64,000 nt of DNA, from assembly GCA_023443725.1 (NCBI GenBank), contig JAEZTF010000007.1:103846-167845 (forward strand), read 5' to 3'. A model generated the notes under the pieces. That model was not told where the DNA came from and searched no databases. It worked only from the letters and a program-made list of their open reading frames with translations. Of this stretch, positions 5,436 through 28,341 are shown piece by piece. Source of the DNA: Candidatus Parcubacteria bacterium. GTDB taxonomy: Bacteria > Patescibacteriota > Microgenomatia > UBA12405. Position numbers and translations under genes: made by a program. The first letter of the stretch is position 1, and the number at the start of each line of letters is the position of its first letter.

Positions 5436-6275
5436 ATGATCAATACTATTTTTTTTGGCTCATCAGAATATTCTGTTATTATTTTAGACCAACTTTTAAA
5501 GTTGTCTGATTTCAAAATCTCGGCTGTCGTCTCTAAAATTGACAAACCAGTTGGACGTAAGCAAGAAATTACCCCTAATCCCATAGTTAAATTTGCCAAA
5601 GATAATAATCTATCTCTTTATCAAATTGAAGAATTTGATTTTAAAGTTAAATCAGAAATAAAAAATTTAAATCCCGACCTTGGTCTTTGTGTTGCTTTCG
5701 GTCCACCTTATTTTGATCAAGAGATGATAGATATCCCTAAATTCAAAATTGTTAACATTCATCCTTCTCCGTTACCTAAATATCGCGGAGCTACTCCAGG
5801 CCCCTGGCAAATTATTAATGGAGAAACTAAGTCTAGTGTCACTTTTTTCCAAATTGATGTTTTACCTGATCACGGTCCAATCATCGCTCAAATTCCTTTT
5901 GATATTTCCTCAACCGAAACATCAACCACCTTCTATAAAAAAGCTTTCAATCTAGCCTGTAAACATTTAGACACAATTTTGAAAAATTATATTTCTTCTC
6001 CAGATAATCTCATTATTCAGAATCACTCAGAAAAAACCTACTTCCCAAAATTTACCAAAGAAACTGCTCAAATTGATTGGTCCTGGTCTCAAGATAAAAT
6101 TGATCGCTTCGTTCGTGCCCTTTATCCTTGGCCCACAGCCTGGACTTATATTACTGACCAAAAAGGTCATCTATTAAAAATGAAAATGTATCCAGAAAAT
6201 CTTGTTCAAATTGAAGGCAAAAAAATTACTAAATGGTCAGAAATTTCTTCTTACTATACTATAAAAAAATCCTAA
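5436..6275 (+). CDS. fmt: methionyl-tRNA formyltransferase
   Basis: N-terminal IFFGSSEYS and the formyltransferase motif VNIHPSPLPKYRGATP. Divergent from def. Confidence 0.9.
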   Translation: MINTIFFGSSEYSVIILDQLLKLSDFKISAVVSKIDKPVGRKQEITPNPIVKFAKDNNLSLYQIEEFDFKVKSEIKNLNPDLGLCVAFGPPYFDQEMIDIPKFKIVNIHPSPLPKYRGATPGPWQIINGETKSSVTFFQIDVLPDHGPIIAQIPFDISSTETSTTFYKKAFNLACKHLDTILKNYISSPDNLIIQNHSEKTYFPKFTKETAQIDWSWSQDKIDRFVRALYPWPTAWTYITDQKGHLLKMKMYPENLVQIEGKKITKWSEISSYYTIKKS

Positions 6276-6645
6276 AATTAGGCAAACAATCACTTTCAAA
6301 CTTATAGTAAAATTTTAATTTTATATTTTTTGAATTTTGTTTTTATCCTATTTTATGGCTTTATTTAAACATCATTTTTAAATTTAATGGATGTTTTCAT
6401 TAATTATGGAATAAGTTTTTTCTGCTACCTTAGGCATTTTTTTTAGTTTTATTTTTTCTATTTTTTTGAAGAAATATTTTTTATCAATTTAAAATTTTCG
6501 ATAAAATAGGCATTTTCAATAAAAAATTTTTCAAAAAATTATTCAAATTTAGTTTATTAAAATTTAAAAAATACCATAAAACAGGCATTTCATTTTTTGA
6601 CAAAGAAAATCAAAATCTTTTTAATTAATTAAAGGAGGTAAAAAT

Positions 6646-6765
6646 ATGCCAGTCAAAAAGAAAGTCGTTAAAAAAGCTGTAAAAAAACCAGCTAAGAAAG
6701 TCGTTAAAAAAGCTACCAAAAAAGTAGCTAAGAAAAAAGTCGCCAAAAAAACTAAAAAGAAATAA
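6646..6765 (+). CDS. 39-aa lysine-rich basic peptide (histone H1/Hc1-tail-like KKAVKK repeats)
   Basis: ATG 7 nt downstream of AAAGGAGGT. Translation MPVKKKVVKKAVKKPAKKVVKKATKKVAKKKVAKKTKKK, followed immediately by a hairpin plus T-run. Not in the ORF track because it is shorter than 60 aa. Confidence 0.5.
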   Translation: MPVKKKVVKKAVKKPAKKVVKKATKKVAKKKVAKKTKKK

Positions 6766-6787
6766 AATTATGTTTCGCCAATAAAAA

Positions 6788-6816
6788 CGGTACTTATTTA
6801 TTAAGTGCCGTTTTTT
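6788..6816 (+). terminator. rho-independent terminator (hairpin CGGTACTT/AAGTGCCG plus T6)
   Basis: Stem-loop followed by TTTTTT. Overlaps the 3' end of rpmB on the opposite strand. Confidence 0.5.
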
Positions 6817-17872: not shown

Positions 17873-17913
17873 TATCCTATAATCTTGACAAATCGCCTAT
17901 TTTAGGCTATAAT
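17873..17913 (+). promoter_or_regulatory. sigma70-like promoter (TTGACA-17-TATAAT) preceded by the 20-nt repeat, copy 2
   Basis: -35 at 17885-17890 and -10 at 17908-17913. Identical 20-mer to 17079-17098. Confidence 0.65.
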
Positions 17914-26901: not shown

Positions 26902-27852
26902 TCAATCTTTTGAATAGGTAATTTTTAGACCACATGATGGACAAACACTAGCCCCATCTTTTAATTCAGTACCACAAGGACAAAAACTTTTTCCATCTCT
27001 AATCTCCGGTTTTACTGATATTTCAGATTTAGAAAATAACTTATCAAAACTACTTTCTAATTGATCACTATTAAGACCACCATGGTTTCCTCCTTCTATT
27101 TGATAACCTCTCACTTTCATCATTCTTTCTAAAAATGCTCCAGTGTGAATTGAATTATTTTCAGTAAAACCACCAAATCTAACTTTTATATCTTCTAATG
27201 TTTCATTGATTACAGTTTCTATTTCTTTTTTTCTACAAATATCTTTGCCTTGTCTAACCACATTCCAAACTTCTTCAACACCAAAAACACTTTCACAAAA
27301 ATTCCATAATTCTTCTTCGTTCTTAATACCAAACTTTAAACCCAATGCTTGTTCTCTCAAATCCTCCACTTGTTTTATCTCTCCAACAGAATCACCTCCA
27401 AATTCAATTATCTTATTTGCCATTAACCACATTTCGTTTGGTTTATTAAAAAGTGGTATACCTCGACAATTAATTTTTATTTGGTTACTATCTTCAACAA
27501 TACCAACTACAATCCTACCGTCTTCATAATCACTTCTTCCTCCACTTGGACTTATCCAAAAAATATATTTACATCCACTCTTTGCCAATTTCCAAATATT
27601 CTTCATTCCCTCATATTCAGCTTTTCCAATTTCACTATTCAGTTCACAACGAAAATTTGGATTACCGTTAATATCAAAACTTAATTCGTAAGGATTAACT
27701 CTTTTTTCAATCTCTTCTACTCCATTTTCCAAAAAAACTCCAGCCAGTTCAGACAAATCTCCATGTTGTCTTTCTAAAGTAATTAAACGCTGTTCTTTTC
27801 CCATATTCTTCTGCTCGGAAGTTTCAGGCTCGGGCTTTAACCGTTGCGGCAC
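26902..27852 (-). CDS. hypothetical protein with C-terminal zinc ribbon
   Basis: 316 aa. C-terminus CPCGTELKDGASVCPSCG. No other recognisable domain. Confidence 0.4.
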   Translation of the reverse strand: MPQRLKPEPETSEQKNMGKEQRLITLERQHGDLSELAGVFLENGVEEIEKRVNPYELSFDINGNPNFRCELNSEIGKAEYEGMKNIWKLAKSGCKYIFWISPSGGRSDYEDGRIVVGIVEDSNQIKINCRGIPLFNKPNEMWLMANKIIEFGGDSVGEIKQVEDLREQALGLKFGIKNEEELWNFCESVFGVEEVWNVVRQGKDICRKKEIETVINETLEDIKVRFGGFTENNSIHTGAFLERMMKVRGYQIEGGNHGGLNSDQLESSFDKLFSKSEISVKPEIRDGKSFCPCGTELKDGASVCPSCGLKITYSKD

Positions 27853-27888
27853 AGCTTGGGAATTACACCCAATTCAAGAAAATTAAAT

Positions 27889-28341
27889 TTACTTCTCTTC
27901 AGCCCTCCTAGCCTTCAAAAACAAATAATCAGACAACCTATTAAAATATTCCAAAACTTTTTCATCTTGTTTTTCTTGATTATCCAAAGCTACTATTCTT
28001 CTCTCTAATCTTCTAGCTACAGTTCTTGCCCAATTTAAATTTAAAGCTTTTTTGTTTTTAAATCTTAAAAATTGTTTTAGCTCAGACAATTCTTTTTCTA
28101 ATTTGTCAATTTCTTTTTCTAAAAATAAAACTTTTTTACCAATATCAACTTCACTATTACATCCAATTTTACCCATTAATTGAAACAAATCATCAACTAT
28201 TAATTCTTCTCCTCCAATCAATTCTAATATTGATTGGAGTTCATCAATAGTACCCACAACTTCAACCAACAAAGAGTCTTTGGAAACTCTTTTGTTTCCA
28301 CAGATTGTTTGACCTTTATCTCCTTGTTTGGTTGTAATCAT
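27889..28341 (-). CDS. ATP:cob(I)alamin adenosyltransferase, PduO/MMAB type
   Basis: N-terminal TKQGDKGQT...SKDSLLVEVVGTIDELQS matches the PduO-family signature (T-GDxGxT ... RVEAxGT-DEL-S). Confidence 0.65.
   Translation of the reverse strand: MITTKQGDKGQTICGNKRVSKDSLLVEVVGTIDELQSILELIGGEELIVDDLFQLMGKIGCNSEVDIGKKVLFLEKEIDKLEKELSELKQFLRFKNKKALNLNWARTVARRLERRIVALDNQEKQDEKVLEYFNRLSDYLFLKARRAEEK

Follow-up and report, generated by a model that had tools for sequence, protein, structure and literature searches.

A conserved gene for a 39-amino acid lysine-rich peptide between fmt and rpmB of Candidatus Shapirobacteria, preceded by an array of dyad-like sites

The 64,000-nt stretch of contig JAEZTF010000007.1 analyzed here, referred to as the window, carries between fmt and rpmB an open reading frame (ORF) for a lysine-rich peptide of 39 amino acids (aa), which is conserved in related genomes and is very probably a real translated gene. 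The local gene order is def (−), fmt (+), the 39-aa ORF (+), rpmB (−), an M50 peptidase gene (+), and a DUF1858 gene (−). The rpmB product is L28 (Pfam E 4.7e-15), and since rpmB is convergent to the 39-aa ORF, the latter is not part of an rpmB operon. The coding sequence is located at 6646–6765 (+) and encodes MPVKKKVVKKAVKKPAKKVVKKATKKVAKKKVAKKTKKK, as quoted in a preliminary description of this DNA; the lysine count is corrected from 22 to 21. The peptide is composed of 21 K, 8 V, 5 A, 2 P, and 2 T, with no D or E, i.e., 54% lysine, and it has a (KKxx)n periodicity; the coding sequence displays period-12 and period-36 nt repeats, including an internal 36-nt repeat. The product is a polycation of ~4.3 kDa with a net charge of ~+21, and is probably disordered; its calculated mass is ~4,386 Da, falling to ~4,254 Da once Met1 is removed. 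The gene belongs to Candidatus Shapirobacteria, members of the candidate phyla radiation.

The ORF is accompanied by a set of expression signals. A Shine-Dalgarno site, AAAGGAGGT, is located at 6631–6639 (+), 6 nt upstream of the ATG and not 7 nt as proposed initially, and AAGGAGG is found in nearly all orthologous loci. The −35 hexamer TTGACA (6597–6602, +) is followed after 17 nt by a −10-like hexamer TTTAAT (6620–6625, +), situated inside a conserved cTTTTTAATTA; this hexamer was missed by a consensus promoter scan, because the scan demands A at hexamer position 2. The TTGAC anchor was detected in 50 of 51 species, in every case as TTGACA, and in the alignment anchored on it the distance from the start of TTGACA to the ATG is 48–51 nt in most species. 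The complete layout TTGACA-17-cTTTTTAATTA-AAGGAGG-ATG is common to 50 of the 51 aligned species. Transcription of the gene from this promoter would start near 6632, producing its own transcript with a leader of ~13 nt and a strong Shine-Dalgarno site. The arrangement (TTGACA, 17 nt, TTTAAT, ~13-nt leader) can serve as an initial consensus for strong promoters of Shapirobacteria.

Downstream, the hairpin and T-run noted previously were confirmed as a bidirectional intrinsic terminator, AAAAACGGTACTTATTTATTAAGTGCCGTTTTTT (6783–6816, both strands), with a flanking A-run and T-run and a dG of −17 kcal/mol (z −4.7; 0 of 200 shuffles fold as well). The rpmB stop codon (6794–6796) sits in the hairpin loop and the last rpmB codons form the right arm, so the terminator is shared by the ORF and the convergent rpmB; an mRNA ending there would be ~185 nt long. 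RNAalifold found the hairpin kept in 27 of 28 species, with compensatory changes in 6 of 12 pairs, and the spacer between stop codon and hairpin, 17 nt in the window, varies between species in length and sequence. A terminator placed 17 nt past a stop codon, together with lysine at 21 of 39 codons, could also describe a regulatory leader that senses lysyl-tRNA and sets termination at the hairpin and read-through antisense to rpmB. However, no co-oriented gene follows, as rpmB is convergent; the alignment of 28 species shows only the terminator stem and no alternative pairing, next to a variable spacer; and the codon third-position bias and the avoidance of A-runs described below suggest that selection acts on the product and on the fidelity of translation. 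Gene orientation and the absence of a conserved alternative structure thus led us to reject an attenuator or leader peptide, which we regard as very improbable indeed.

To define the distribution of the gene, relatives were gathered via fmt alignment, which yielded 80 species-level Candidatus Shapirobacteria genomes with fmt identities to the window of 53–77%; ~9 kb around fmt was examined in each. A K-rich ORF starting with MP[VAT]KK and located 3' of fmt, convergent with rpmB, was found in 49–51 of the 80 species, and almost every locus of sufficient length retains the fmt/rpmB/M50 order. The preliminary description had suggested searching relatives at the same synteny and had counted a lack of conserved frame or length against the gene; the ORF recurs between fmt and rpmB, kept in frame and in position. 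The orthologs are 20–46 aa long, their differences in length show up as alignment gaps in the KKxx repeat region, and M1, P2, and K5 are the only invariant residues. The ORF had further been called unannotated, which does not hold for 14 metagenome contigs from several studies, on which gene callers give exactly this 39-aa product; wherever the contig includes the flanks, it sits between fmt and rpmB.

Codon substitutions were counted in nine ortholog pairs of the same length. The differences fall on codon positions 1/2/3 as 8/8/59, corresponding to 52 synonymous versus 11 non-synonymous codon changes. An antisense ORF at 6621–6746 (−), encoding a Phe/Leu/Thr-rich hydrophobic product of 41 aa, is also open and gives 47 synonymous versus 21 non-synonymous changes in the same pairs. 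Its wobble positions are also those of the plus frame, so that the codon evidence alone is not decisive and strand-specific signals are needed. If the antisense ORF were the true gene, the lysine frame would be its mirror image; however, it has a TTG start with no Shine-Dalgarno site upstream, whereas the conserved signals (promoter, AAGGAGG, ATG) are all in plus orientation. The plus frame moreover has the better ratio and is the one that gene callers picked, and a stop-free antisense frame is expected for any A-rich sense strand. The antisense ORF was therefore rejected on expression signals, its codon statistics being not clearly worse, and it is extremely unlikely to be the real gene.

The lysine codons of the plus frame are also biased. 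AAG makes up 25% of them, compared with 15% in the long ORFs of the window, and the longest A-run in the ORF is 7 nt, where genomic codon usage predicts 9.3 (P 0.016); over 50 orthologs, the mean longest A-run is 7.1 versus 9.7 expected. Such short A-runs are consistent with selection against slippery poly(A) stretches in an mRNA that is translated.

The spacer between fmt and the promoter contains an array of sites with the pattern CC-N8-GG(CA). The preliminary description had reported three AGGCATTT copies at 6432, 6508, and 6583, which were confirmed at these positions; the repeat is real and conserved in position, but it comprises five sites in register rather than three. The dyad-like sites, designated S0 to S4, start at 6271, 6347, ~6423, 6499, and 6574, with spacings of 76, 76, 76, and 75 bp, and the motif is often a true dyad, CCTA-N4-TAGG or CCTAA-N2-TTAGG. 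A weight matrix derived from 49 other species, using their site just 5' of the −35 hexamer, recovered 6499 and 6574 strongly and 6432 weakly, as a half-site, and added the sites at 6271 and 6347. The overall frequency of AGGCATTT in the window is that expected by chance (4 copies versus 4.2), while its local clustering, with three copies within 159 bp, has a probability of ~8e-5 by a Poisson estimate.

S0, CCTAAAATTAGGCA (CCTAAAATTAGG), is located at 6271–6284 (+) and forms a perfect 5+5 dyad (CCTAA-N2-TTAGG) overlapping with the TAA stop codon of fmt (6273–6275); it is the sole CCTA-N4-TAGG in 64 kb, versus 0.5 expected. In 11 relatives, an equivalent site is positioned −372 to −378 relative to the ATG; after indels, it is at −366 in L023 and −363 in L084. 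S1, CCTATTTTATGGCT (6347–6360, +), is of the CC-N8-GG type and is present between −297 and −304 in 18 of 20 species (−290 in L023, −287 in L084), often as a perfect dyad such as CCTAACTTTAGG; L022 carries CCTGTTTACAGG. S2, CCTTAGGCATTTT (6428–6440, +; register ~6423–6436), which corresponds to the first of the AGGCATTT copies reported earlier, is a half-site only; its TTAGGCA is kept in part of the clade and is replaced by CTTCCGYC in L010, L017, L018, and L027. S3, CGATAAAATAGGCA (6499–6512, +), occupies −146 to −151 in 18 of 20 species (−138 in L023, −136 in L084) and lies within a 41-nt direct repeat, 6475–6515 versus 6550–6590, of 76% identity. S4, CCATAAAACAGGCATTT (6574–6590, +), is situated directly 5' of the −35 hexamer, at ~−59 to −43 from the predicted start, and its CC and AGG columns have the top information content 5' of −35 when 50 species are aligned on TTGACA.

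The periodicity extends across the relatives. In 20 species with long spacers the sites recur at ~−375, −300, (−224), −148, and −73 from the ATG, and the summed autocorrelation of 19 species peaks at lags of 75–76 (z-sums ~43) and 151–153. The number of units differs by clade, being 1, 2, 4, or 5, with one clade carrying two sites 87 bp apart; the shortest spacers (~100 bp) retain only the proximal site, and S4, next to −35, is the universal one.

Two readings of the repeats in the preliminary description did not withstand this analysis. The copies had been placed on a shared helical face, but at 10.5 bp per turn of B-DNA, 76 bp amounts to 7.24 turns, which rotates each site by ~85 degrees relative to the next. 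They had also been compared with UP elements; these, like class I activator sites, lie 5' of sigma-70 promoters, where S4 occupies a similar position (~−59 to −43) that fits an UP element (−59 to −38). However, the conserved positions of S4 are C/G, its most informative columns being CC and AGG with a dyad tendency and not A/T-rich, and the site is repeated four more times. We see an even chance that the sites constitute an operator array kept under selection for a dimeric regulator. Such a dimeric DNA-binding protein would most likely bind the CC-N8-GG(CA) array and control the promoter, and in our reading the sites other than S4 would have arisen by tandem duplication of the ~76-bp unit.

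Between S1 and S2, a block of ~95 bp (6345–6440) with the consensus tCCTAtttttAGGcaaaATTTAAA..TTTTTAAATTTATTGGAAAAtTTCAyCATTAATgAAt..TTTTTCTGCTAnCTTAGGCA is kept almost base for base in alignments of 20 species, far more than its surroundings. No consensus RNA structure was obtained by RNAalifold on either strand of the spacer and block (0 pairs), Rfam gave only sub-threshold noise on the spacer, and a single-sequence fold of the whole ~370-bp spacer was no better than shuffled sequence (z −0.46); RNA structure therefore does not explain the conservation of the sites and the block. Coding potential was rejected after reading the alignments by eye: a mini-ORF on the plus strand is interrupted by stops in L069 and L031, one on the minus strand is not kept in L069, and the block as a whole has a 1-nt insertion in L011 and no 3-nt conservation pattern. 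Among the sigma-54, CodY, cre, DnaA-box, parS, and IHF consensus sequences, we found no convincing match to the block by eye. The site array and this block are the least expected features of the locus.

The array could instead be a decaying tandem duplication of a promoter-upstream unit that has no function now. The variable number of units among clades and the 76% identity of the 41-nt direct repeat are in line with such decay, as is the turnover of the interior of the first unit: between strains of the window's own species that are otherwise identical in sequence, the 62 bp at 6285–6346 are replaced by an unrelated TAATTA-rich sequence (L001:5645–5706 and L008, where fmt is called as 281 aa instead of 279 aa). 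However, this replacement preserves the length exactly and leaves the flanking array sites identical, the CC/GG positions and their spacing are kept in 20 species while the intervening sequence diverges, and the block at 6345–6440 is far more conserved than its surroundings. We consider functionless decay rather unlikely and favour the candidate operator array.

As a separate observation, a near-consensus promoter, TTGACA-17-TATAAT, is found at 17885–17913 (+) of the window. Its spacer holds CCTATTTTAGG, a CC-N7-GG dyad that is one base shorter than the array sites.

Next, the peptide was compared with known protein families. Pfam hmmscan at E up to 1 returned 0 families, although composition filters may suppress such matches, and Hc1 (PF07432), HC2 (PF07382), and linker histone H1/H5 (PF00538) gave no match; nor did an NCBIfam scan. 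A word-indexed profile search with a 34-ortholog alignment against 5.8 billion proteins and an exhaustive phmmer search against 1.84 billion representatives found no match, a PDB search returned only eL27 at E 9.2, i.e., noise, and in an exact look-up none of five orthologs was present in the protein collection. These negatives say little, because a 39-aa low-complexity query is unsuited to such searches and the collection is without such short sequences; for the same reasons of length and complexity, the peptide is not placed in any family. A scan of metagenomes by DNA pattern identified 58 loci with an MPVKKK-initiated K-rich ORF behind AAGGAGG, which group into the Shapirobacteria type, an AKKAPAKK type of 48–66 aa (contig GC ~0.6), 16-aa versions, and fusions to Cys domains. 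As MPVKKK-type ORFs occur alone or fused on unrelated contigs, the K-rich segment appears to be a generic module, in keeping with a role in polyanion binding.

Bacterial histone H1-like or lysine-rich low-complexity DNA-binding proteins form a functional class and not a homology family. The peptide shares the sequence features of this class, consisting of short tandem repeats of Lys with Ala, Pro, or Val without acidic residues, and its repeat number and length change rapidly among relatives (20–46 aa). The preliminary description had likened it to histone H1, Hc1, and HU tails, a likeness that stands for composition and not for homology, none being detected to H1, Hc1, or HU. On composition, the lysine-rich H1-tail-like class describes the product best, as a minimal version that stands alone, and we favour a role in non-specific polyanion binding, in which the KKxx tetrapeptide units would bind polyanions without sequence specificity. 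There is an even chance, judging by composition, that DNA is the main target, with RNA or polyphosphate as possible alternatives.

Several characterized proteins offer points of comparison. PAKKA/KAAK-type lysine-rich low-complexity tails of Hlp/HupB, Deinococcus HU, and Mycobacterium smegmatis Ku add DNA binding, bridging, and end-apposition (PMC3553676). Like the peptide, they are made of short repeats in which Lys is accompanied by Ala, Pro, or Val, lack acidic residues, and evolve rapidly in length; however, they are appendages of folded DNA-binding domains, whereas here the repeat is the entire 39-aa protein, Val is more prominent than Ala or Pro, and homology is undetectable. Of the bacterial proteins termed 'histone H1-like', chlamydial Hc2 (hctB) varies in repeat number and is 165–237 aa long (PMC2848022), and AlgP of Pseudomonas is linked to polyphosphate granule spacing (PMC9239181). 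Both resemble the peptide in being stand-alone proteins built mostly of short lysine-rich repeats whose number differs from one strain or species to another. Both bind polyanions (DNA in the case of Hc2), a property predicted for the peptide from its composition; Hc2 is several-fold larger, the repeat units of both differ (pentamers, KPAA), and the peptide has no Pfam HC2 match. AlgP is presumably much larger than 39 aa as well.

H1-like proteins of kinetoplastids and Toxoplasma are reduced to the C-terminal domain, TgH1-like being 91 aa long (PMC9769792). As in the peptide, there is no globular domain and only an H1 C-terminal-like lysine-rich segment; these proteins are, however, eukaryotic, act in nucleosomal chromatin, and are longer, and the likeness does not imply common descent. 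At the same small size, Coxiella ScvA and sperm protamines (~30–50 aa) are extremely basic and thought to condense DNA, but they are rich in Arg or Arg/Gln, stage-specific, and without sequence relationship to the peptide.

A different function is suggested by the neighbouring genes, all of which concern translation or N-terminal processing. On this view, the peptide would associate with the ribosome or bind rRNA, much as bS22, bL37, bTHX, or eL41 do, and the location beside rpmB, fmt, and def would reflect a role in translation; the peptide is very basic and very short, as are several late-discovered ribosomal proteins, and its expression signals are strong. However, no curated model of a small ribosomal protein (bS22, bL37, bTHX, bL36, etc.) and no solved ribosome chain matches it. 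Ribosomal proteins with fixed contacts have a fixed length and position-specific residues, whereas here only the MPVKK start is kept in orthologs of variable length. The gene is also absent from the fmt–rpmB locus in ~22 relatives. A ribosomal role therefore fits worse than polyanion binding, and we consider it quite unlikely.

Bacteria of the candidate phyla radiation are often episymbionts, and a short, highly cationic peptide in which K alternates with small hydrophobic residues could be secreted or displayed as an antimicrobial or cell-penetrating agent against or on a host. However, the peptide has no signal peptide and no bulky hydrophobic residue, its lysine content is 54%, and no transporter, immunity, or maturation gene lies alongside; a 4-residue period would also give no straight amphipathic face. 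This possibility is very unlikely.

Taken as a whole, the explanation that combines a real gene, a DNA-coating polycation, and a regulator-bound array is in our estimate evenly balanced between right and wrong. Several observations weigh against it besides the antisense codon counts. In the ~22 species lacking the gene between them, fmt abuts rpmB within ~40 bp, with at most a degraded hairpin, so the cassette of spacer plus gene is accessory at this locus; within the ~9 kb viewed per genome, the gene is either dispensable or relocated in these species. Within the 64-kb window, no other promoter was found to carry the array motif, and no regulator gene is evident nearby. Finally, our searches detected no homology to H1, Hc1, HC2, HU, or another family, and for that reason the function is assigned from composition.

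A bolder version, in which the peptide is an abundant, genetically encoded polycation of these ultra-small, AT-rich bacteria, a minimal 'bacterial protamine/H1 tail' serving as a main chromatin or charge-neutralising component, possibly replacing polyamines or other nucleoid proteins, with its dosage set by an undescribed regulator acting on a superhelically phased array (five CC-N8-GG dyads, 76 bp) plus the 95-bp block, appears unlikely. If the peptide does coat DNA, no stand-alone H1-tail-like protein would be smaller, and it would offer a simple model of nucleic-acid organisation by lysine-rich low-complexity sequences; the phased site array hints at a new regulator. Current understanding is not overturned, since many bacteria are already known to have lysine-rich H1-like proteins and tails. 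Genes so short and of such low complexity fall under ORF cut-offs and are missing from the searched protein databases; a conserved, probably highly expressed component of candidate phyla radiation bacteria can thus stay unseen.

Further small ORFs were noted during the analysis. A second small basic ORF, MGSSKSSELKKVKIKGVTKTKRR, of 23 aa lies ~1.6–2.6 kb 5' of fmt in several Shapirobacteria species, seen at L012:2359–2430 (−) and also in L014, L019, and L025. Among the metagenome loci, L103, L105, L106, L107, L120, L127, L134, L135, and L141 carry ORFs of 56–64 aa in which a Cys-rich domain is fused to a lysine-rich MPVKKK tail at the N terminus. The motif YVCxxCG...LxCCGE is found in 8 of these 9 fusion loci, L120 having another Cys pattern, and we take this domain to resemble desulforedoxin. 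A 16-aa ORF, MPVKKKA[AV]KKKTAKK[RK], stands behind AAGGAGG on eight separate metagenome contigs (L096, L097, L108, L125, L131, L133, L143, and L146), with a GC content of ~0.40 in the two checked (L133, L146). In L098, L101, L117, L122, and L130, a lysine-rich small ORF is located near a gene whose product starts with MxSMTGxG and is, we assume, YicC-like; as these loci come from unrelated lineages with GC from 0.36 to 0.63, this may be a recurrent neighbourhood.

Over the window as a whole, GC skew is negative in every 2-kb bin (1–64000; cumulative value −8.35), and with no skew switch in 64 kb there is no signature of a replication origin or terminus in this stretch. An AdoCbl-II (cobalamin) riboswitch aptamer was detected at 27818–27895 (−), with 40.6 bits and E 3e-6, above the Rfam gathering threshold.

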